NCBI RefSeq assembly: GCF_003399445.1
Contig: NZ_QUQO01000002.1
Coordinates: 316,290-380,289, forward strand
Reading direction: 5' to 3'
Length of the DNA: 64,000 nucleotides
Source of the DNA: Parvularcula marina
GTDB taxonomy: Bacteria; Pseudomonadota; Alphaproteobacteria; Caulobacterales; Parvularculaceae
The notes below the pieces were generated by a model. It had not been told where the DNA came from, made no database searches, and saw nothing but the letters and a program-made list of their open reading frames with translations. The position numbers and the translations under genes are program-made. Shown piece after piece: positions 2,276 through 37,858 of this stretch; position 1 is the stretch's first letter; each line of letters starts with the position of its first letter.

Positions 2276-3439
2276 ATGAAACGACTTCTTCTGCTGACAG
2301 GCGAGACGCCCACAGACCCCGTCCTCTGGTGGCGGGGCAGTGAAGACGGCCCCTCCGACAGCGGGGTTGCCGAGGAAGGCCTGACGGGGGTGCCCGGAGC
2401 GCTGCTCGGGAGCCCGCAGATCGCTGTCATCCTGCCCGGGGAGCTCGCCGCAACACGCCGCCTGCACCTGCCCGTCAATCGCGATGCCGCGCTTGAGGCC
2501 GCCGCCCGGCTTGCTTTTGAGGATGTGCTTGCAGCGCCTGCGGATGAATTCCACTTTGCCTTCGGGTCAACCGAAGCCGATGGCAAGCGCACGGTCTCTG
2601 CCGTGCCGCGCGACTGGATGGCGGGCTGGGTTTCTGCCCTCGATGAAGCGGGGATCGAAGCTGACATTGTGACCATCGACCATCTTGCGATTTGTGCTGA
2701 GGGCGGACGATATGCCGTCCTTCAGGAAGGCACCCGCGTCATCATGCGCCTGCCCGAAGGCGGGATGTCAATGACAGCGGAGTTTGCGGCAGCCCTCATC
2801 CCCTCGCTCGATGGGGTGGAAGACGCACAGCATATCAGTGTTGGCCGCGCCGAGGAGAAAGCCCTTGTGCTGACGGATCGGCGGGCGCTGGGCGCCTATT
2901 ATGCCGCCTCGATTGAACGTGAGATGCCGCCGAGTCTCTTGCGCGGCACCTATCGGCGGCGGCGCGACTGGTCAGGACTTGTCCGCCAGTGGCGGCATGT
3001 CGGCGCGCTGGCTGCGGCCTGCATGGTCGTCTGGCTCGCCGGGATGCTGAGCGACGGGCTCCGCCATGGCGCAGCAGCCAGCAATCTCGAAGACGAGGCT
3101 ATCGAGCTCTTCACCCAAGCCTATCCCAACACGCCTGTGCGCGATCTGTCGCGTCAGGCGGCATCGCGGGCGCGGGCCGGGGTCACGCCGATGTTCCTTC
3201 CACTGAGCGCCGAGCTGACCGCTGCAATGGAAGACACGGTCTCCGTCGAGCTGACTGCGATCAGCTATACCGCTGGTGAAGGGCTTATCGCCGATCTGCG
3301 CTTTCCCGAGGCGGCCTCGCTCGAAGCCTTGCGCCAGCGGCTTGAGGCACGCGGGGTTGAGACCCGCGAGGGCGGCAATATCAGGCGCGAGGAAGATGGC
3401 CGCTATGCCGGGCAGCTCCTGTTGGGAGGCATCCAATGA
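2276..3439 (+). CDS. gspL: Type II secretion inner-membrane protein GspL
   Basis: About 388 aa with an internal TM segment (WRHVGALAAACMVVWLAGML). Operon position is K-L-M. The ATG at 2276 lies just after the gspK stop. Confidence 0.7.
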   Translation: MKRLLLLTGETPTDPVLWWRGSEDGPSDSGVAEEGLTGVPGALLGSPQIAVILPGELAATRRLHLPVNRDAALEAAARLAFEDVLAAPADEFHFAFGSTEADGKRTVSAVPRDWMAGWVSALDEAGIEADIVTIDHLAICAEGGRYAVLQEGTRVIMRLPEGGMSMTAEFAAALIPSLDGVEDAQHISVGRAEEKALVLTDRRALGAYYAASIEREMPPSLLRGTYRRRRDWSGLVRQWRHVGALAAACMVVWLAGMLSDGLRHGAAASNLEDEAIELFTQAYPNTPVRDLSRQAASRARAGVTPMFLPLSAELTAAMEDTVSVELTAISYTAGEGLIADLRFPEAASLEALRQRLEARGVETREGGNIRREEDGRYAGQLLLGGIQ

Positions 3440-3888
3440 CCGCATGGTGGAATGATCTGAGCGCGCGCGAGCGCCAGCTCCTGATGATCGGCGGGGCGGT
3501 GGTTGCTTTCGCTGTTCTCTTCTTTTTGATTATCCGTCCCCTGACCACCTATCGGCAGAATGCCATGCTGGATTATGACCGCGCGGTCTCGACTTATCGT
3601 CAGGTGACGATTGCGGCGGCGGCCCCGCAGGAGGACGCACTTGACCCTGCGGCCTTGCGGTCGGTCATCACGTCGAGCGCGCAGGCGAGAGGCATCGTCA
3701 TCAACCGGATTTCCTCGCAAGGCGCGGTGCTTGATGTGTCGATTGCCGGCACATCGCCCGCGCGTCTTTACGGCTGGATTGCCGGGCTTGAGGCGCAGCA
3801 CAATGTGCATGTCCAGAGCGCCCAGCTTCGTCCGTCCAGTGAGAATGGCGTGACCGCGCGGCTGACGCTGATGAGCGGAGGAGCGTGA
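3436..3888 (+). CDS. gspM: Type II secretion protein GspM
   Basis: 150 aa with an N-terminal TM helix (LLMIGGAVVAFAVLFFLI). It overlaps gspL in an ATGA arrangement. Confidence 0.7.
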   Translation: MTAWWNDLSARERQLLMIGGAVVAFAVLFFLIIRPLTTYRQNAMLDYDRAVSTYRQVTIAAAAPQEDALDPAALRSVITSSAQARGIVINRISSQGAVLDVSIAGTSPARLYGWIAGLEAQHNVHVQSAQLRPSSENGVTARLTLMSGGA

Positions 3889-3891
3889 AAC

Positions 3892-4614
3892 ATGTTCCGC
3901 TGGGTTGCCCTTTTTGGTTTGAGTGCGGTCGTTGCGGCGGTGGCGATGTTTCCGCTCAATCTTGCGTTGCTTCTGAGTGCGGCACCGGTTGAGGCGCAGA
4001 AAGTGACGGGCACGGTCTGGAAGGGCCGAATCGAGGGCGCAAGCACGCAAGGCTACCAGCTTGGTGACATCGATGTCTCGGCAAGGCTGCTGCCGCTCCT
4101 GACGGGGCGGCTTCAGGCGGCAGTGAAGATCGACGGGCCGATTGCGCGCGGGGACGCGATCGTGACCGCGCGGCCCGGTGCGCTGCGGTTTGATGAGACC
4201 GATGCGCGAGTGAATATCGCGGCGCTCCGGCTGAAGGATGCGTTCGGTGCTCCGATGAGCGGCATGGTCGATTTCAAAACCGATGAGCTCGTGCTTACCG
4301 AAGACGGCCGCTGTCTTGGTGGGGAGGTCAGCCTGTCGACTGACACGCTCCAGCGCAGCGCGGTCCACTATGGCGGGCAGGGCTTCTCGCTCGCCGGTGA
4401 GGGCGCGTGCACGGATGAGGTGCTGATCCTGCCGCTGAGCGGAGAGGGGCCGGAGGGGCAGGCGGAGGTGACGATCCGGGTGTCCCGCTCAGGCTATCAG
4501 ACCGAACTCGTGATCGAGCCGAAAGATCAACAGCTTGCAGCGGCTCTATCTGCCTATGGCTTTGAGGAGCGAGGCGGGCGATATTCGCTTATCCAGCGGG
4601 GAGATGTCTTCTGA
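3892..4614 (+). CDS. gspN: Type II secretion protein GspN
   Basis: 240 aa with an N-terminal TM or signal segment. It follows gspM by 3 bp and is the last gene of the gsp block. Confidence 0.6.
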   Translation: MFRWVALFGLSAVVAAVAMFPLNLALLLSAAPVEAQKVTGTVWKGRIEGASTQGYQLGDIDVSARLLPLLTGRLQAAVKIDGPIARGDAIVTARPGALRFDETDARVNIAALRLKDAFGAPMSGMVDFKTDELVLTEDGRCLGGEVSLSTDTLQRSAVHYGGQGFSLAGEGACTDEVLILPLSGEGPEGQAEVTIRVSRSGYQTELVIEPKDQQLAAALSAYGFEERGGRYSLIQRGDVF

Positions 4615-30609: not shown

Positions 30610-30885
30610 GCTCGATTGCGTGCCGATGCATGTCAAAGGTCAGTACAAATAGCATCACGAGATTGTTGCGGATCGGCAACAGCACGAAGTAAAGCCAGAT
30701 TTTCTTTGTCCGAATTCTGGACAACGGCAGAAAGAGTATCCATCTGCTCTCGCGTTCACTTGTCGTATGGTTGGGGCTCCTGAGACCCCGCCGGTGCAGC
30801 CCGTCTCGGACCCTGCGTTCCACGGCAATGAATGCCAAGACCATAGCCAAATCGGAAAAGGCACTCGTCCTGAGGGCGAGAGATT

Positions 30886-30910
30886 GGGGGTTCGAGTCCT
30901 CCTGGTTTTA
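30886..30910 (+). other. Orphan tRNA 3'-end-like fragment (T-arm plus acceptor 3' strand)
   Basis: GGGGG-TTCGAGT-CCTCC then TGGTTTT-A. No matching D-arm, anticodon arm or complementary 5' strand was found upstream. Confidence 0.35.
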
Positions 30911-30981
30911 CATGGATAGCTCAAGGGTAGAGCACTAGACTCATAATCTAGGTGTTGCGGGTTCGATCCCCGCTCCAAAAT
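30910..30981 (+). tRNA. tRNA-like element with CAT anticodon (Met/Ile2-type) and a disrupted acceptor stem; possible tRNA pseudogene or att remnant
   Basis: Canonical D-arm (TAGCTCAAGGGTAGAGCA), a perfect anticodon stem CTAGA/TCTAG with loop CTCATAA, and a T-arm GCGGG-TTCGATC-CCCGC. The 5' strand ACATGGA pairs with only 4 of 7 positions of the 3' strand TCCAAAA. The expected TTTTGGA is split as TTTT-acat-GGA. Confidence 0.5.
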
Positions 30982-34407: not shown

Positions 34408-35157
34408 TTAGCCCCGCGTCAGGGCATAAAGACTGATAGAGGCGGCGCTGGCGACATTGAGGCTTTCGACATCAGGCGCGATCGGGATCGACACCAGTGT
34501 CTCGCACGTCTCGCGGACGAGTTCGCGCAGGCCCTTACCCTCCGCCCCCAGAACAAGAGCGACCGGATGGTCGCTTTTAAAGTCAGGCAGGGAAGTCGCG
34601 CCTTCGCCTGCCAGCCCTGCGGTGTGAAAGCCGAGCTCCTGAAGACGGCTCAGGCTGCGAGCAATGTTCACGACACTGACGAAGGGAACGGTTTCGACTG
34701 CGCCGACCGCGGCCTTGGCCAGCGCGCCCGAGAGCGGCGGGGTCCTCCGGTCCTGCGCAATGATGGCTTGTGCGCCAAAGGCGGCGGCGGCACGGAAGAT
34801 GGCGCCGATATTCTGGGGGTCGGTGACCTGGTCGAGAATGACGACGGGGCCGGGCTTGGCCGGATCGCAAACGTCATCGAGCTTGTAATCGGGCAGGGGA
34901 GCAACCTTGACGGCGAGCCCCTGATGAACGGCCCCTGCGGGCAGCGAATCATCGAGCAGTTTCGGGGTCACAGGCTCGATCCCGATCTCAAGCCCGTGAT
35001 CCTTCAGCCAGTCGAGCGCATTCTTTGTTGCGAGCAGCTTGTGCTGATGACGAGTCCGGTTCGTCAGGACTGCCGCCACGGCATGACGGCCATAGATCCA
35101 GACGGGACCATCCCGGTCGGGCTTTGAAGGGGGGCGTTTGGCAGGGGGACGCGGCAT
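34408..35157 (-). CDS. rlmB: 23S rRNA (guanosine-2'-O)-methyltransferase RlmB (SpoU/TrmH family)
   Basis: N-terminal SpoU substrate-binding domain (WIYGRHAV) and a SPOUT catalytic domain (ILDQVTDPQNIGAIFRAAAAFG...LVLGAEGKGLR). Confidence 0.85.
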   Translation of the reverse strand: MPRPPAKRPPSKPDRDGPVWIYGRHAVAAVLTNRTRHQHKLLATKNALDWLKDHGLEIGIEPVTPKLLDDSLPAGAVHQGLAVKVAPLPDYKLDDVCDPAKPGPVVILDQVTDPQNIGAIFRAAAAFGAQAIIAQDRRTPPLSGALAKAAVGAVETVPFVSVVNIARSLSRLQELGFHTAGLAGEGATSLPDFKSDHPVALVLGAEGKGLRELVRETCETLVSIPIAPDVESLNVASAASISLYALTRG

Positions 35158-35279: not shown

Positions 35280-35597
35280 ATGACCGATCTCTCTGCCAGG
35301 AAAGCGCAACTCGAAGCCCGTCTCGCTGAGCTTGAGAGCCGGCTCCACAAGATCGATTCCGATCTCGACGCGCCGGTCAGCAAGAACTGGGACGAGGCCG
35401 CGATCGAGCGGGAAAATGACGAAGTGCGTGAGGAAATCGGCCATGAGGGGCTGAAAGAGGTGCGCGCGATCCGGGCGGCGCTGACACGCATTGAGGACGG
35501 CACTTACGGCGAATGCATTGATTGCGGCGAGGAAATTTCGCCTGAGCGGCTCGAGGCGGTGCCCTATGCCGCGCTCTGCCGGAAATGCGCCGCCTGA
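35280..35597 (+). CDS. DksA/TraR family C4-type zinc-finger protein
   Basis: Coiled-coil N-terminus and a C-terminal CIDCGEEI...CRKCAA four-cysteine finger. The MTDLSA start is preferred, with GGAG upstream. Confidence 0.8.
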   Translation: MTDLSARKAQLEARLAELESRLHKIDSDLDAPVSKNWDEAAIERENDEVREEIGHEGLKEVRAIRAALTRIEDGTYGECIDCGEEISPERLEAVPYAALCRKCAA

Positions 35598-35679
35598 ACG
35601 CTGGGCAAATTCTCTCTTAAAAGCGGTTGCAGCTCTCCCGCCCTTTGATTATACGCGCGGTTCGCTCACTGAGCCCGAT

Positions 35680-35765
35680 GGAGGGGTGGGAGAGTGGTTA
35701 AATCCAGCAGACTGTAAATCTGCCCGCTTCGGCGTACGCTGGTTCGAATCCAGCCCCCTCCACCA
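35680..35765 (+). tRNA. tRNA-Tyr (GTA)
   Basis: Acceptor GGAGGGG/CCCCTCC, anticodon loop ACTGTAAAT, a long variable arm and a T-arm GGTTCGAATCC. The CCA end is encoded. Confidence 0.9.
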
Positions 35766-35770
35766 GCCTT

Positions 35771-35897
35771 CGCCCTCATCGGGCTACGGCTTGGCAGGCC
35801 AGCCAGGAAATGAGTTCCGGCTCGAAGCGTATTATCCATTAGTGTGGGCGAAGGCTGCCACGTCGAAGTCGCTCTGCGACGAAGACGGGCTGGATGA
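35771..35897 (+). repeat. Direct repeat copy 1 (conserved blocks of ~35 bp and ~52 bp), immediately 3' of tRNA-Tyr
   Basis: CGCCCTCATCGGGCTACGGCTTGGCAGGCCAGCC ... GGGCGAAGGCTGCCACGTCGAAGTCGCTCTGCGACGAAGACGGGCTGGATGA. It is a near-identical copy of 36178-36297, except for a variable ~45-bp middle section. Confidence 0.8.
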
Positions 35898-35917
35898 GAA
35901 GCGCTAGCTTCTTGCTC

Positions 35918-36157
35918 ATGAAATATGTCTACATCTTGGAAAGCCTGTCTGACCCTGATCGCCATTATGTCGGTCTGACCGACGACCTTCGTGACAGGCT
36001 TGAAAAGCATAACAATGGCGTTGTGTCTTCGACCGCTCGGCACAGGCCTTGGCGTATACAAACTTATCTTGCTTTTTCGGATACACAGCGAGCTATCGAG
36101 TTTGAGAAATATCTCAAGAGCGGTTCCGGGCGAGCATTCGCGAAGAAACGACTTTAG
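35918..36157 (+). CDS. GIY-YIG nuclease family protein (small, ~80 aa)
   Basis: KYVYILES...HYVGLTDDLRDRLEKHN GIY-YIG motif. The MKYVYI start is preferred over the track start. Confidence 0.75.
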   Translation: MKYVYILESLSDPDRHYVGLTDDLRDRLEKHNNGVVSSTARHRPWRIQTYLAFSDTQRAIEFEKYLKSGSGRAFAKKRL

Positions 36158-36177
36158 ATTTTTCAATCGCCCTCATC

Positions 36178-36297
36178 GGGCTTCGGCTTGGCAGACCAGC
36201 CCAAAACCGATTTTCAAGCTTTAAGACGAATGTGCCATTGGCGCGGGCGAAGGCTGCCACGTCGAAGTCGCCCCAGCGACGAAGACGGGCTGGATGA
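36178..36297 (+). repeat. Direct repeat copy 2, immediately 3' of the GIY-YIG gene
   Basis: CGCCCTCATCGGGCTTCGGCTTGGCAGACCAGCC ... GGGCGAAGGCTGCCACGTCGAAGTCGCCCCAGCGACGAAGACGGGCTGGATGA. Confidence 0.8.
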
Positions 36298-36352
36298 ACC
36301 TTTCCGACTCACAACTCCAGCCTGCCCTGCGGAGATGTACCTTCGCGAAGTC

Positions 36353-37858
36353 TCAGACCTCAAACGTCACGCCCTGCGCGAGGGGCAGGTCGGCCGAGTA
36401 ATTGATGGTGTTGGTCGCGCGGCGCATATAGGCCTTCCACGCATCCGAGCCTGACTCGCGGCCACCGCCGGTTTCCTTCTCTCCACCAAAGGCACCGCCA
36501 ATCTCCGCGCCGGACGTGCCGATGTTCACATTGGCGATTCCGCAATCTGAACCTGCCGCGGAGAGGAACTGCTCCGCCTCCCGCATATTCATGGTAAAGA
36601 TGGAAGAGGAGAGCCCGGCGCCGACATCGTTCTGCAGCGCGATCGCCTCATCAAGATCGCTATAGCGCATGACATAAAGGATCGGTGCGAAGGTTTCCTC
36701 CCGGACGATTCCCTCATGCGCGGGCATTTCGGCAAGGGCGGGCCGGGCATAATAGGCGCCGGATGCGCCCGTCTCGAACCGCTCCCCGCCATGGACCTTG
36801 CCGCCCTGGCTGCGCGCGCGTTCAAGCGCATATTGCATATTCTCGAATGAGCCTGCGTCGATCAGCGGGCCGATCAGGGTTTTCTCCTCACGCGGATCTC
36901 CGATGGGTACGCTGCTGTAAGCGGCAATCAGCTTCGGCATGAAATCATCATAGAGGCTGTCATGCAGGAAGAGCCGCCGCATCGTCGTGCAACGCTGGCC
37001 CGCCGTGCCGGTTGCGGAGAAAAGAACCCCCCGCAAAGTAAGGTCGAGATCGGCTGTCGGGCAGACGATCGCCGCATTGTTCCCTCCAAGCTCCAAAATC
37101 GGGCGGGCAAAACGCGCGGCAAGGCGCGGGCCGACTTCACGGCCCATACGGGTCGAGCCGGTCGCAGAAAGGACGGGTACGTCCTTGTGGTCGACGAGCT
37201 TCTCGCCAATTTCACGGGCCCCGATGAGAACGGCATGAAGCCCGTCCGGCACGTCACCGAATTTCTTCGCCGCGCGTTCGAAGATCGCATTGCAGGCAAG
37301 TGCCGTCAGTGGCGTTTTCTCGGAAGGCTTCCAGACAACCGCATTGCCGCAGACAAGGGCGAGGGCCGCGTTCCAGCTCCACACCGCAACGGGAAAGTTG
37401 AAAGCGGAGATGATGCCGACGACACCGGCCGGGTGCCAGCTTTCCATCATTCTGTGCCCGGCGCGTTCGGACGCAATCGTCAGACCGTAAAGCTGGCGCG
37501 AGAGGCCAACCGCGAAGTCGCAGATATCGATCATCTCCTGGACTTCACCGAGGCCCTCGGAGGTCACCTTACCGGCTTCCAGGGTCACCAGGCGGCCAAG
37601 CTCTGCCTTGCTGGCGCGCAGCTCTTCACCGAGCAGGCGGACGAATTCGCCGCGCCGGGGGGCGGGCACGCTGCGCCATTTCAGGAACGCGTCGCGGGCG
37701 CGGGCGACGGCGGCATCCACATCGCCTTGCGTATGAACTTCGGCAATCACTTCGCCCGTAATCGGAGAGGTGACGGAGAGATCGCCGCTGTTGAACTGCG
37801 CGGCGGGCACGCCGATTTTCTCAAGCAGTTCTGTTGTTTCGTCCCTGACATCGCGCAT
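36353..37858 (-). CDS. NAD(P)-dependent aldehyde dehydrogenase family protein
   Basis: ALDH catalytic Cys region (ELGGNNAAIV...GQRCT) and Glu active site, 501 aa. Confidence 0.85.
   Translation of the reverse strand: MRDVRDETTELLEKIGVPAAQFNSGDLSVTSPITGEVIAEVHTQGDVDAAVARARDAFLKWRSVPAPRRGEFVRLLGEELRASKAELGRLVTLEAGKVTSEGLGEVQEMIDICDFAVGLSRQLYGLTIASERAGHRMMESWHPAGVVGIISAFNFPVAVWSWNAALALVCGNAVVWKPSEKTPLTALACNAIFERAAKKFGDVPDGLHAVLIGAREIGEKLVDHKDVPVLSATGSTRMGREVGPRLAARFARPILELGGNNAAIVCPTADLDLTLRGVLFSATGTAGQRCTTMRRLFLHDSLYDDFMPKLIAAYSSVPIGDPREEKTLIGPLIDAGSFENMQYALERARSQGGKVHGGERFETGASGAYYARPALAEMPAHEGIVREETFAPILYVMRYSDLDEAIALQNDVGAGLSSSIFTMNMREAEQFLSAAGSDCGIANVNIGTSGAEIGGAFGGEKETGGGRESGSDAWKAYMRRATNTINYSADLPLAQGVTFEV

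Follow-up and report, generated by a model that had tools for sequence, protein, structure and literature searches.

The 3′ ends of tRNA genes are classic landing sites of integrase-borne islands. At one such end in Parvularcula marina, within the 64-kb stretch of DNA analysed here (64,000 nucleotides, referred to below as the window), two direct repeats enclose a single 240-bp gene for a GIY-YIG protein, and the ORF and Pfam search found no integrase, transposase or RAYT near the locus. The neighbours are the syntenic genes SpoU, DksA, Aldedh and AA_kinase, in agreement with the original observation that neither an integrase nor a transposase is present. What, then, occupies this tRNA end, and what are the repeats?

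The host gene, tRNA-Tyr(GTA), lies at positions 35680-35765 of the plus strand, the strand of all features described here (ARAGORN; 60.9 bits with the Rfam tRNA model), and its acceptor end consists of A73 at 35762 and C74-C75-A76 at 35763-35765. The next base, G35766, opens an element of about 130 nt that we call E and that is present in two copies. As copy A (35766-35897) starts right after the CCA, the proposed minimal nuclease cassette does sit exactly at the tRNA 3′ end. Its parts are, in order, the 5′ arm of an inverted repeat, P1 (CAGCCTTCGCCC, 35764-35775), which takes in C75 and A76 of the tRNA and is backed by covariation in 58 loci; a small hairpin, GCCC-TCATC-GGGC (35772-35784), just before a motif M3 with its lead-in (GCTACGGCTTGGCA plus GGCC, 35783-35800), which is complementary to 35856-35869; a variable middle section (35805-35845); the 3′ arm of P1 (GGGCGAAGGCTG, 35846-35857), supported by covariation and RNAalifold; and hairpin M2 (35857-35890), to which the covariance model R1 gives 52.6 bits over 35847-35890 and for which compensatory changes and RNAalifold likewise speak. 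The end of the repeat, at 35897, and a 20-nt leader (together 35891-35917) precede the GIY-YIG gene (35918-36157; Pfam PF01541; stop codon TAG at 36155-36157), predicted to encode a minimal Slx1-like protein of 79 aa. Copy B (E′, 36167-36297; 51.2 bits with R1) has its first base 9 nt past that stop and retains M3 with its lead-in (36180-36197), a middle section (36202-36244), the P1 3′ arm (36245-36256) and M2 (36256-36290), while its P1 5′ arm is truncated (TCGCCC, 36167-36172). A 26-nt right flank (ACCTTTCCGACTCACAACTCCAGCCT, 36298-36323) goes with the element; its end is similar to the left junction. Only 55 nt lie between copy B and the stop of the aldehyde dehydrogenase gene, and they hold no trace of a second nuclease gene.

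Two direct repeats with a divergent middle had been described from the outset, and both the repeat search and the pairwise alignment show them to be real, although the second begins at 36167 and not at 36178. The search recovered three co-linear blocks, 35770-35804 / 36167-36201 (35 nt, 94% identity), 35836-35872 / 36235-36271 (37 nt, 92%) and 35876-35897 / 36276-36297 (22 nt, 100%), with a start-to-start spacing of 397-400 nt. In the alignment, copies A and B agree at 33/35 positions on the left, 20/43 in the middle and 50/53 on the right, and the middle section is variable in length and sequence across the whole E family. The suggestion that the repeats might be a dispersed, REP-like element did not survive. 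Dispersed copies showed up neither in pattern searches that allowed 3 mismatches, nor in loose motif counts (which GC-rich DNA makes noisy), nor with a calibrated covariance model. The left-block and right-block patterns each occur exactly twice in the window at up to 3 mismatches (0 in 100 shuffles), both times at this locus, and the right-block model, run with filters off, returns the two copies at 52.6 and 51.2 bits and a next best match of 20.8 bits. Across 447 kb of related loci, every match of at least 30 bits lies at a tRNA end or beside the nuclease gene.

A comparison with close relatives had been suggested as a way to find an empty site at tRNA-Tyr, and near-identical strains do carry both solo-repeat and repeat-less alleles. 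In the Parvularcula marina-like contigs L209-L212 the same tRNA-Tyr is followed by one E and no nuclease gene, with flanks that match the window at 173/177 and 46/48 positions. Their middle section agrees with copy B at 41/43 positions and with copy A at 20/43, and the right flank of copy B is common to them; their solo E and copy B are orthologous. The loop of the small hairpin reads TCATC in A and B and TTGCA in the relative. Compared with the solo-E allele, the window has an additional 397-bp unit, E plus the nuclease gene, between the tRNA and copy B. On sequence comparison, copy B appears to be the older, resident copy, and the 397-bp difference is compatible with gain or loss. Contig L213 has neither E nor the nuclease gene after the same tRNA-Tyr, and L214, a more distant relative, is also E-less. 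The tRNA-Tyr gene shows 100% identity in both the solo-E and the E-less allele. The E-less allele, which also lacks the 26-nt flank, differs from the E-bearing one by a replacement (79 nt versus 161 nt) and not by a clean insertion, and no target-site duplication was found at the allele junctions. We considered the 79-nt E-less spacer as a decayed E and rejected the idea (z = 1.3; 58/500 shuffles score at least equal). The locus is therefore polymorphic among close strains, being empty, occupied by solo E or occupied by E-GIY-E′.

The same arrangement recurs well beyond Parvularcula. E abuts the 3′ CCA of tRNA or tmRNA genes, base for base, across Alphaproteobacteria, Acidobacteria and other phyla, and its hosts overall comprise more than 20 kinds of tRNA plus tmRNA in several phyla (about 14 anticodon types in genomes, with further isotypes in metagenomes). 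An intact same-strand tRNA lies 89-323 nt upstream of the nuclease gene in 67 of its 80 genomic relatives; the remaining 13 consist of 4 after a tmRNA (that of L053 scores 164.9 bits), 6 after a tRNA 3′ fragment with the same junction, 2 on contigs that are too short and 1 without the junction. The junction itself, NCCA followed directly by GCCTTCGC, is found in 77/78 nuclease-gene relatives with enough upstream DNA and in 66/67 genome loci. E is absent from the other tRNAs of the same loci and from the tRNA-Gly of the window, and the nuclease gene, where present, lies about 20-300 nt downstream of E. Bracketing by repeats is true of our locus and is not a defining trait, since about 90% of the 80 related loci have the upstream copy only. 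With E as the query, a metagenome search gave 72 informative matches, 48 solo and 24 followed by the nuclease gene; this roughly twofold excess of solo E is compatible with both recruitment and loss of the nuclease. The host tRNA differs between related genomes, and one MAG carries two cassettes at different tRNAs (L010, L075). Tandem second units with decayed, frameshifted nuclease genes were seen in L013, L074 and L078, tandem upstream E copies in some loci, and a cassette inside tRNA-Val-tRNA-Asp operons in five. One host stands out, tRNA-Ala(GGC), with 27 of the 67 loci that have an intact upstream tRNA; 13 of the 27 are labelled Bradyrhizobium, a concentration in keeping with an element long inherited vertically and perhaps useful to the host. 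IMG/VR yielded no phage relative and PLSDB no plasmid relative. E is, in short, a conserved structured element of about 100-130 nt fused to the tRNA or tmRNA CCA, and not a dispersed REP.

The view of the repeats as two copies of a structured RNA-type element also holds, on covariation and on the covariance model. Compensatory changes back each of the three parts of E, namely hairpin M2, motif M3 and a helix, P1, in which tRNA C75-A76 are paired. The share of paired alignment cells is 93.6%, whereas shuffles reach 83.7% and slid controls 28-44%; double-change cells number 149 against 49±5, and compensatory changes occur at 12/24 pairs, in M2 for instance at 33-65 (CG35/UA20) and 38-60 (CG39/GC8/UA7). 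RNAalifold independently predicts the same fold. In M2, a single base bulges from the lower stem, and a symmetric internal loop, GAA/GAA here and conserved as GNA/GNA across the family, separates it from the upper stem GTCGC/GCGAC. Core pairs include 8 G·U against 1 A·C, which points to an RNA of the plus strand. The register of P1 is fixed at position 75 even where no CCA is encoded, as in L030 (CCG) and the tmRNAs of L053 and L074. M3 forms a helix with the 5′ strand of M2 (94.2% of cells paired; position 6 covaries CG20/UA8/GC4), and its 14-nt complementarity, in copy A to 35856-35869, holds at 12/14 positions. This 14-nt pairing competes with M2; in type I elements, to which copy A belongs, P1+M2 is favoured over the alternative fold by 8-16 kcal/mol. 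Type I and type II elements differ by a circular permutation of M3, whose pairing across P1 makes a pseudoknot in type I. A local M3 hairpin (GGCU/AGCC), whose variant positions were uncompensated by eye, was given up in favour of the M3:M2 helix, and no covariation was seen between the W of CUWCGG and the base in the middle of the M2 loop. Every feature of E is present in copy A: the junction, P1 from position 75, M2 with its GNA/GNA loop, and M3. No Rfam family matches the conserved fold: at gathering thresholds the whole window gave tRNA matches only, and no relevant match appeared in 35600-36400 at E-values up to 10, ribozymes, HEARO and IS605-orfB included, or in ten related loci at E-values up to 1. 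E is missing from Rfam, and if it acts as a ribozyme or as a switch coupled to processing, it constitutes a new and well-supported RNA class.

The protein matches Pfam PF01541 with 51.1 bits (cut-off 22.6; E-value 1.7e-13). We take ATG 35918 as its start, and dismiss the upstream ATG 35894, because all homologs have 79 aa and the N-terminus MKYVYIL. It is 100% identical to a Parvularcula marina protein and has more than 3000 relatives, nearly all of 79 aa among those listed. Residues Y3, Y5, Y17, G19, R27, H31, N32 and E63, among them the catalytic tyrosines of the GIY and YIG motifs and the catalytic Arg, His and Glu, are invariant in 35 sequences, and a basic C-terminal tail, SGSGRAFAKKRL, is highly conserved. 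Foldseek places the AlphaFold2 model (pLDDT 93.4) closest to At-HIGLE, Slx1 and BH0048, each with probability 1.00 (At-HIGLE and Slx1 with TMq 0.70-0.74), while the sequence scores only 23 bits against BH0048. The protein is a single domain, Pfam adding only the related T5orf172 and no DNA-binding domain. We conclude that it belongs to the GIY-YIG superfamily, in what the model indicates is the minimal, Slx1-like branch, and is a predicted nuclease, its relatives forming a distinct 79-aa clade with the conserved SGSGRAFAKKRL tail. NCBIfam has no family name for it, and PADLOC returned only weak matches to an unrelated candidate system (E-value 0.004). Protein identity is 67.0% within Alphaproteobacteria, 66.9% between Alphaproteobacteria and Acidobacteria and 81% between cross-phylum nearest neighbours, so that protein similarity does not follow phylogeny. 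Upstream, no clear Shine-Dalgarno sequence is visible in the 20-nt leader, and the predicted MFE hairpin overlaps the start codon. Sequestration of a Shine-Dalgarno sequence by the 3′ strand of M2 was rejected as a general mechanism, the distance from M2 to the start codon ranging from 4 to more than 150 nt. Separate hairpins lie near the nuclease start in the Bradyrhizobium loci.

Taken together, we favour, with a probability of roughly 0.55, the reading that E, with or without the nuclease gene, is a new selfish cassette specific to tRNA 3′ ends. The cassette would have no promoter of its own and would be expressed by read-through from the tRNA gene, as suggested by the lack of any promoter-like or terminator-like site from the tRNA to the gene (none in 35300-36600) and by the cassettes inside tRNA operons. 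In the precursor RNA, P1 would form from tRNA position 75, pairing with C75-A76, followed by M2, and M3 would have the alternative of pairing with the 5′ half of M2 together with the two final bases of P1. E would then be a two-state leader that probably permits correct release of the tRNA and probably either keeps the nuclease poorly translated or ties its translation to the processing of the tRNA. The nuclease, presumably structure-specific and with no DNA-binding domain, would most likely nick or cut DNA at tRNA 3′ ends or at E, and the cassette would be copied in by recombinational repair, in a homing-like manner and always from the CCA. Solo E could result from incomplete copying or from recombination between E and E′, and bracketing from a new E-GIY unit arriving beside a resident E or from tandem duplication. 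The decayed tandem units, the two cassettes in one MAG and the protein identities that do not track phylum speak for selfishness, and the nuclease would be the putative driver of spread; with solo E twice as frequent as E plus nuclease, E may also spread, or be useful, alone. Against the cassette reading are the lack of a DNA-binding domain, unlike characterised GIY-YIG homing enzymes, the lack of a target-site duplication and of a phage or plasmid carrier in IMG/VR and PLSDB, the replacement by which the E-less and E-bearing alleles differ, the concentration of loci at tRNA-Ala(GGC), and the lower stability of the alternative M3 fold in type I elements.

The bracketing repeats themselves could possibly be no more than what is left after unequal crossover or slippage doubled the unit locally to [E-GIY]x2; a subsequent deletion would have removed the second nuclease gene, copy B would have no role, and the solo E of the relatives would stem from recombination between A and B. 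The loci L013, L074 and L078 look like intermediate stages of such a process, the indel equals the repeat period of 397-400 nt, and a crossover in the left block would yield exactly a solo E with the middle and right flank of copy B. We hold this account to be tentative, as nothing of a second nuclease gene is left in the 55 nt past copy B, blocks that are 92-100% identical around a middle that is 47% identical are not a pattern of neutral decay, the TTGCA loop of the relative is unlike both A and B, and the E-less alleles mean that the locus changes beyond what duplication explains.

It is less probable, and in our view unlikely, that E is a host tRNA-trailer RNA (a 3′-processing signal, a stabiliser or a trailer-derived small RNA) and that the GIY-YIG protein serves the host in repair or RNA processing, its expression from tRNA operons being incidental, with neither of them mobile. 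The strong purifying selection on both RNA structure and protein would suit this idea, as would the stable tRNA-Ala(GGC) position over many Bradyrhizobium loci, the register of P1 relative to the acceptor end and the commonness of solo E. It sits poorly with presence and absence in near-identical strains, with host tRNAs that differ between related genomes and number two in one MAG, with the decayed tandem copies and the absence of E at most tRNAs, and with the discordance between protein similarity and phylogeny.

We could also speculate, at odds that we consider similarly low, that E is the active core of a new class of RNA-based mobile elements: the tRNA-E transcript would either process itself at the CCA, as a new circularly permuted ribozyme, or serve as scaffold or guide for a 79-aa nuclease that nicks the 3′ ends of tRNA genes, E with or without the gene being copied in from the CCA. 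Both halves of this idea have been weighed on their own, and each seems to us quite doubtful. As a self-cleaving ribozyme, E would cut between the CCA and the following G, so that the tRNA is freed and the nuclease mRNA acquires its 5′ end; R2 retrotransposon RNA is separated in a comparable way, by HDV-like ribozymes, from the rRNA with which it is co-transcribed. The invariant, nucleotide-exact junction and the type I pseudoknot agree with this, as does the permutation of M3 between the two types, circular permutation being typical of small ribozymes. Yet no Rfam ribozyme matches at E-values up to 10, and the -1 and -2 bases are paired in P1, which is not the case in this way in HDV-like and hatchet ribozymes. 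Cleavage of the ribozyme type would, moreover, leave a 2′,3′-cyclic phosphate on A76 and block charging. A further point for a ribozyme is that Penelope-like elements pair GIY-YIG with hammerhead ribozymes in their terminal repeats (PMC4209133).

As a functional partner of the nuclease, the E RNA would either inhibit it, as in type III toxin-antitoxin systems, or, as a scaffold or guide and jointly with the attached tRNA sequence, bring it to the ends of tRNA genes. E lies directly upstream of a very small nuclease with no targeting domain, whose basic tail is highly conserved; the GNA/GNA loop of M2 might, on its predicted structure, suit protein binding, and the layout may be analogous to that of HEARO/IscB, where the RNA abuts the left end of the element and the flank. 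Two-thirds of the sampled E copies, however, have no nuclease gene nearby, the PADLOC matches are weak and unrelated and NCBIfam offers none, and 79 aa is far below the size of known RNA-guided nucleases; we know of none near it, all being far larger. Compared with the type III toxin-antitoxin layout, no terminator was seen, the repeats flank the nuclease gene instead of preceding it, and some loci have tandem upstream copies.

Finally, it is barely credible that the repeats belong to a mobile element of a familiar kind, whether as att sites of an integrated island, as the termini of a MITE or an insertion sequence, or as REP/BIME repeats scattered over the genome: direct repeats beside a tRNA gene are typical of integrated islands and P1 is an inverted repeat, but no integrase, transposase or RAYT is nearby, the repeats start after the CCA, hold no tRNA sequence and enclose a 240-bp gene only, they number two in 64 kb, all matches of at least 30 bits in 447 kb of related loci sit by a tRNA end or the nuclease gene, and the G·U-rich pairing of the repeats favours RNA over protein-bound DNA repeats. 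We accordingly rejected an att-like or target-site duplication (no tRNA sequence in the repeats, and a copy B that is apparently the older resident), a MITE or insertion sequence (P1 arms internal and not terminal, no junction duplication, no transposase) and a REPtron (no RAYT, or HUH, gene, the only enclosed gene being GIY-YIG).

The preferred reading, a selfish cassette of tRNA ends, would matter for several reasons. The cassette is an apparently different occupant of tRNA 3′ ends, structured, in register with the acceptor end and with an optional protein. If it is mobile, as the allele series suggests, it would represent a new tRNA-end-specific selfish family with autonomous and non-autonomous forms, and it would supply a biological role for the standalone bacterial Slx1-like nucleases, which to our knowledge have none at present. 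Should the nuclease depend on E RNA as a partner, it would be the smallest nuclease known to depend on RNA; should the RNA-based class exist, it would be the first bacterial family that targets the universal tRNA 3′ end with no integrase, transposase or reverse transcriptase. In practical terms, E confounds the annotation of tRNA flanks and the calling of island boundaries, and it is a natural compact element for expressing cargo from tRNA promoters.

In the literature that we searched, whose coverage was partial so that an earlier description may exist, we found no description of a GIY-YIG element of tRNA ends. The cassette nevertheless shares traits with several known systems. The protein has the same minimal fold and catalytic residues as Slx1-like/UPF0213 proteins (YhbQ, BH0048), and a review of standalone prokaryotic members reports no linkage to tRNA ends (PMC1564403). 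T4 SegB is a free-standing GIY-YIG homing endonuclease gene in a phage tRNA gene cluster (PMC2330249), and our cassette resembles it as a lone GIY-YIG gene beside tRNA genes, with no transposase or integrase, that is present or absent between close relatives; as with homing endonucleases in general, presence and absence occur at a fixed site (present in the window, absent from L209-L212 and L213). Unlike I-TevI and Seg enzymes, the nuclease has no joined sequence-reading DNA-binding modules. Whereas SegB-type proteins have such modules at the C-terminus and belong to phage genomes, here a bare 79-aa Slx1-like domain is found in bacterial chromosomes, in a cassette whose conserved structured element, also found gene-less, joins it precisely to the CCA end.

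Like REPtrons and IS200/IS605 with their palindromic derivatives, the family consists of short hairpin elements with or without a small nuclease gene, that is, autonomous and non-autonomous, inserted immediately 3′ of a short fixed sequence with no target duplication. It differs from them in having a GIY-YIG protein and not an HUH tyrosine transposase, in its confinement to tRNA 3′ ends and in its G·U-tolerant pairing. The Bradyrhizobium repeats Br-REP1 and Br-REP2 were considered and set aside, their sequences differing from E. Penelope-like retroelements have a GIY-YIG gene flanked by structured-RNA direct repeats and partial tandem copies, as here, but they are eukaryotic and encode a reverse transcriptase, whereas our cassette has neither a reverse transcriptase nor a hammerhead ribozyme (PMC4209133). 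With HEARO/IscB and the omega-RNAs of IS605 TnpB, E shares the position of a structured RNA beside a nuclease gene, on the border of a selfish element and abutting the host flank; unlike them it has no RuvC or HNH domain, no Rfam match and a protein about five times smaller, and any guide role here is hypothetical. In E. coli, 3′ETS-leuZ is a functional RNA obtained from a tRNA trailer by co-transcription and processing, and E may by analogy be such a tRNA-trailer RNA, co-transcribed and processed in the same way. Unlike the 3′ external transcribed spacer RNAs, which are locus-specific trailers, E is a conserved family that spans many tRNAs and several phyla and is linked to a nuclease.

The GIY-YIG nuclease gene behind tRNA-Tyr is flanked on both sides by copies of a structured element, here called E, the first of which is joined to the CCA of the tRNA. 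In the window, the tRNA-Tyr(GTA) gene (35680-35765) is followed directly 3' of its CCA by copy A, of about 130 nt (35766-35897), then by a 20-nt leader, the 79-codon nuclease ORF (35918-36157; Pfam GIY-YIG match, E 1.7e-13) and copy B, which starts nine nucleotides past the stop of the ORF (36167-36297). The two direct repeats around a GIY-YIG gene that the original prediction placed after tRNA-Tyr are thus confirmed, and its coordinates hold except for the start of copy B, which is 36167. The two copies agree at 33/35 positions of the left block, 20/43 of the middle and 50/53 of the right block, and neither outer block recurs in the rest of the 64 kb or appears in shuffled sequence. Since the blocks bearing the conserved helices are 92-100% identical and the middle 47%, the copies would either both be under selection or have been homogenised by conversion. 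The assignment of the window to Parvularcula marina is based on a protein from this species that is 100% identical to the window nuclease.

Two other features of the window deserve mention. A SpoU/TrmH-type methyltransferase gene (34408-35157, minus strand) lies two genes upstream of the cassette; a 2006 GIY-YIG survey described an Slx1-like GIY-YIG domain fused to a TrmH-like methyltransferase in Erythrobacter litoralis (PMC1564403), a fusion that might have arisen from this same neighbourhood of tRNA-Tyr. On the plus strand, 30837-30977 holds two abutting Rfam tRNA-like matches, 30837-30910 (51.9 bits) and 30913-30977 (53.8 bits, model positions 4-67), of which ARAGORN recognises just the one at 30837-30910, reporting a tRNA-Ser(TGA) of 75 nt that lacks a long variable arm. 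The region may be a pair of tRNAs, tandem or partly truncated, or else a tRNA of phage type.

Copy A is no local oddity but a family-wide companion of the nuclease gene. We compared 80 genomic loci encoding nuclease relatives from Alphaproteobacteria, Terriglobia, Verrucomicrobiota, Nitrospiraceae, Bdellovibrionales, Marinimicrobia and other taxa, and in 67 an intact same-strand tRNA lies 89-323 nt upstream of the nuclease gene. The other 13 comprise four loci after a tmRNA gene (confirmed at 164.9 bits in L053), six after a tRNA 3' fragment, two on contigs too short and one without E. The host tRNAs are Ala (three anticodons), Val, Met, Leu, Tyr, Pro, Phe, Ile, Arg, Lys and Ser; despite these differences the junction NCCA|GCCTTCGC is identical to the base in 66/67 loci, and ordinary trailers follow other tRNAs of the same loci and the window tRNA-Gly. 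The cassette sits between tRNA-Val and tRNA-Asp, which form one operon in other bacteria, in five loci. The six fragments are probably, we infer, original ends displaced by islands integrated into the tRNA. Only the T-arm, acceptor strand and CCA precede E in L027, L050, L059, L060, L073 and L081, about 60-330 nt upstream of the nuclease gene, and L087 and L128 show the order intact tRNA, about 100 nt, duplicated 3' fragment, E. All of these look like tRNA ends displaced by island integration and, if so, E is older than those integrations. One Rhizomicrobium MAG (L010 and L075) carries two cassettes, at tRNA Leu-GAG and Ala-CGC; with one element of type II and one of type I, neither cassette is a recent copy of the other. 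In an Acidobacteriaceae MAG (L043), a cobalamin riboswitch unrelated to the cassette (3384-3650, 50.7 bits) lies ~150 nt downstream of the nuclease gene, an example of cassette insertion immediately before a regulated operon.

Reading 67 or more tRNA-to-gene spacers revealed three modules in E. In the helix P1, AGCCUUCGC and a variable extension pair with GCGAAGGCU, and C75 and A76 of the tRNA are part of the helix. Immediately 3' lies the hairpin M2, whose lower stem with a one-base bulge is followed by a symmetric GNA/GNA internal loop and a variable upper stem. The third module is the motif M3, GCUWCGGCUYGGCARGCC, which in type I elements, including those of the window, lies within the P1 loop, and in type II elements, where P1 is a simple hairpin, comes after M2. 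The register of P1 is kept where CCA is not encoded, the partner base becoming C in L030 (CCG), and in Marinimicrobia tmRNA genes P1 still begins at position 75. We aligned the P1 arms and M2 of 58 loci, replacing the variable interior by an artificial GAAA linker and taking as P1 3' arm, in every case, the arm adjoining M2. Paired cells amounted to 93.6%, versus 83.7% in shuffles and only 28-44% in slid controls; double-change cells numbered 149 versus 49±5 in shuffles, and 12 of the 24 P1/M2 pairs showed compensatory changes. RNAalifold independently yielded the same P1 and M2 fold. Among core pairs, G·U exceeds A·C by 8 to 1, so the pairing is read on the plus strand, to which tRNA and nuclease gene also belong, and would most simply be that of an RNA. 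The structured RNA foreseen in the original prediction matched no Rfam family, in the window or in ten related loci. The P1 3' arm GCGAAGGCUG (35846-35857) and the M2 3' strand (35877-35890; consensus GCGAAGGCGG, window sequence GCGACGAAGACGG) share the core GCGAAGGC, as in most family members, which suggests an internal duplication. In the minimum-energy fold of L021, the P1 5' arm pairs with the M2 strand instead.

A second pairing competes with this fold. The 14 nt of M3 and its lead-in can pair with a stretch made up of the two bases that end the P1 3' arm and the 5' half of M2; pairing holds at 12 of the 14 positions in 77-100% of 61 loci, the 10-nt core has 94.2% of cells paired, and M3 position 6 covaries with the M2 'bulge' base (C-G 20, U-A 8, G-C 4). 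The M3 helix also contends for the two bases that hold C75-A76. In thermodynamic folding it is the minimum-energy or near-minimum fold of type II elements; for copy A and other type I elements, its energy exceeds the minimum by 8-16 kcal/mol. Because the M3 helix and the lower M2 stem are mutually exclusive and each has its own compensatory changes, E is predicted to be a two-state or pseudoknotted RNA with a circularly permuted M3 module.

That the repeats are REP-like is not borne out: in the window, a covariance model built from P1-3' plus M2 matches nothing but copies A and B, and all matches of at least 30 bits in 447 kb of related loci lie within about 400 nt of a nuclease gene, so E is no dispersed REP. 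E also occurs without the nuclease gene. A metagenome search with an E-specific 22-mer gave at least 88 matches in at least 80 loci; among the matches listed, 72 have at least 650 nt of downstream DNA, 24 of them followed by a nuclease gene and 48 not. The solo elements among these listed matches are complete, with unrelated genes downstream, and most sit on the CCA of tRNAs (Val, Ala, Leu, Lys, Met, Cys, Gly, Arg, Tyr, Phe, Gln, Trp, Ser or SeC) or of tmRNA.

Alleles of the tRNA-Tyr locus differ in the presence of both E and the nuclease gene. Contigs from relatives, anchored on a DksA-like gene that lies 82 nt before tRNA-Tyr, provided the empty sites for which the original prediction called. 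Four contigs (L209-L212; DksA 99% identical to that of the window, flanks 173/177 and 46/48 identical) carry the same tRNA-Tyr and one E without a nuclease gene, and are 397 nt shorter than the window. The middle section of this solo E matches copy B at 41/43 positions and copy A at 20/43, and its right flank is that of copy B; copy B is its ortholog. Another contig (L213), with the same DksA protein and an identical tRNA, has 79 unrelated nucleotides past the CCA before identity resumes from GCCCTGCGG, with no covariance-model match or detectable similarity to E, and a more distant relative (L214, DksA 73% identical) is likewise E-less. The locus is thus polymorphic, with three states: without E, with a solo E, or with E, nuclease gene and a second E. 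Compared with the solo state, the window has one extra unit of E plus nuclease gene between the tRNA and the resident E. Gain, which could occur by insertion at the CCA or by a single crossover of a circular unit with the resident E, and loss, which would occur by recombination between copies A and B, yield the same product, so either direction fits. The small hairpin loop reads TCATC in both A and B and TTGCA in the relative, which hints at gene conversion or crossover inside E. The 26 nt after copy B (36298-36323) or after solo E (L209, about 4126-4151) are missing from the E-less allele and end in CTCCAGCCT, resembling the left junction CTCCACCAGCCT; they could be a junction scar or a donor-derived remnant of a tRNA end.

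Tandem and decayed copies occur elsewhere, a downstream second E being present in about 10% of loci. L012 holds an exact duplicate; further second copies are found in L013, L020, L033, L050 and L078, and weaker ones in L085, L075 and L009. A second nuclease gene, disrupted by a frameshift, lies behind the second copy in L013, L074 and L078. Most second copies, copy B included, miss the P1 5' arm, and the two copies of one locus are far more alike than either is to those of other lineages.

The nuclease has more than 3000 relatives, and among the matches listed nearly all are exactly 79 aa long and 60-76% identical. Its catalytic residues and a C-terminal SGSGRAFAKKRL tail are invariant or nearly so. 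The AlphaFold2 model is confident (pLDDT 93.4), and its best matches are BH0048/UPF0213 and, at TMq 0.70-0.74, the nuclease domains of Slx1, a structure-specific enzyme acting together with partners, and of At-HIGLE. The protein contains no DNA-binding module, and neither NCBIfam nor PADLOC provides a name for it. Mean identity is 67.0% within Alphaproteobacteria versus 66.9% between Alphaproteobacteria and Acidobacteria, and the nearest neighbours of acidobacterial copies are alphaproteobacterial (81% identity); these values suggest horizontal transfer, subject to the shortness of the protein and possible MAG mis-binning. A search for phage or plasmid carriers of nuclease relatives found none. 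Bradyrhizobium-type cassettes (L042, L044, L048, L054, L056, L073, L077) have an extra hairpin 20-40 nt before the ATG, in which a G-rich Shine-Dalgarno-like run (GGGGGA/GGGAGG) pairs with a C-rich run just upstream of the start codon.

How might such a cassette work? Since there is no promoter-like or terminator-like site between tRNA and nuclease gene and the cassette can sit within tRNA operons, it would be expressed by read-through from the tRNA promoter. P1 and M2 would form in the precursor. Once the tRNA end is released, the two bases from which the M3 helix nucleates would be free, and the resulting refolding of the leader would control translation of a potentially harmful nuclease. 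The extra start-proximal hairpins of Bradyrhizobium loci fit tight repression. The nuclease would make a break seeding homing-like copying from the CCA outward, and solo E would arise from partial copying or from recombination between two copies. We give this scheme as a whole a probability of about 0.55. E very probably represents a family of tRNA-end elements with an optional nuclease gene, and the differences in presence and absence are likely to reflect real turnover. That the nuclease drives this turnover is a tentative proposal, at slightly under even odds, and refolding of the leader upon tRNA processing is more speculative still.

We found no prior description of the element or the cassette in Rfam 15 or in the searchable literature, whose incomplete coverage leaves absence unproven. 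It is improbable that the E RNA acts as a catalyst or as the partner of the nuclease; if it did, the cassette would be categorically new. Penelope-like elements (PMC4209133) also place a GIY-YIG domain between structured direct repeats, but the cassette has no reverse transcriptase. With IS200/IS605 elements and REPtrons it shares the logic of autonomous and non-autonomous forms and insertion 3' of a fixed short sequence, whereas its enzyme is different and it is not dispersed. The cassette works most like the free-standing GIY-YIG homing endonuclease genes, such as T4 segB among tRNA genes (PMC2330249); however, its protein is devoid of their defining DNA-binding module, and it carries a conserved RNA that has no counterpart in those genes.
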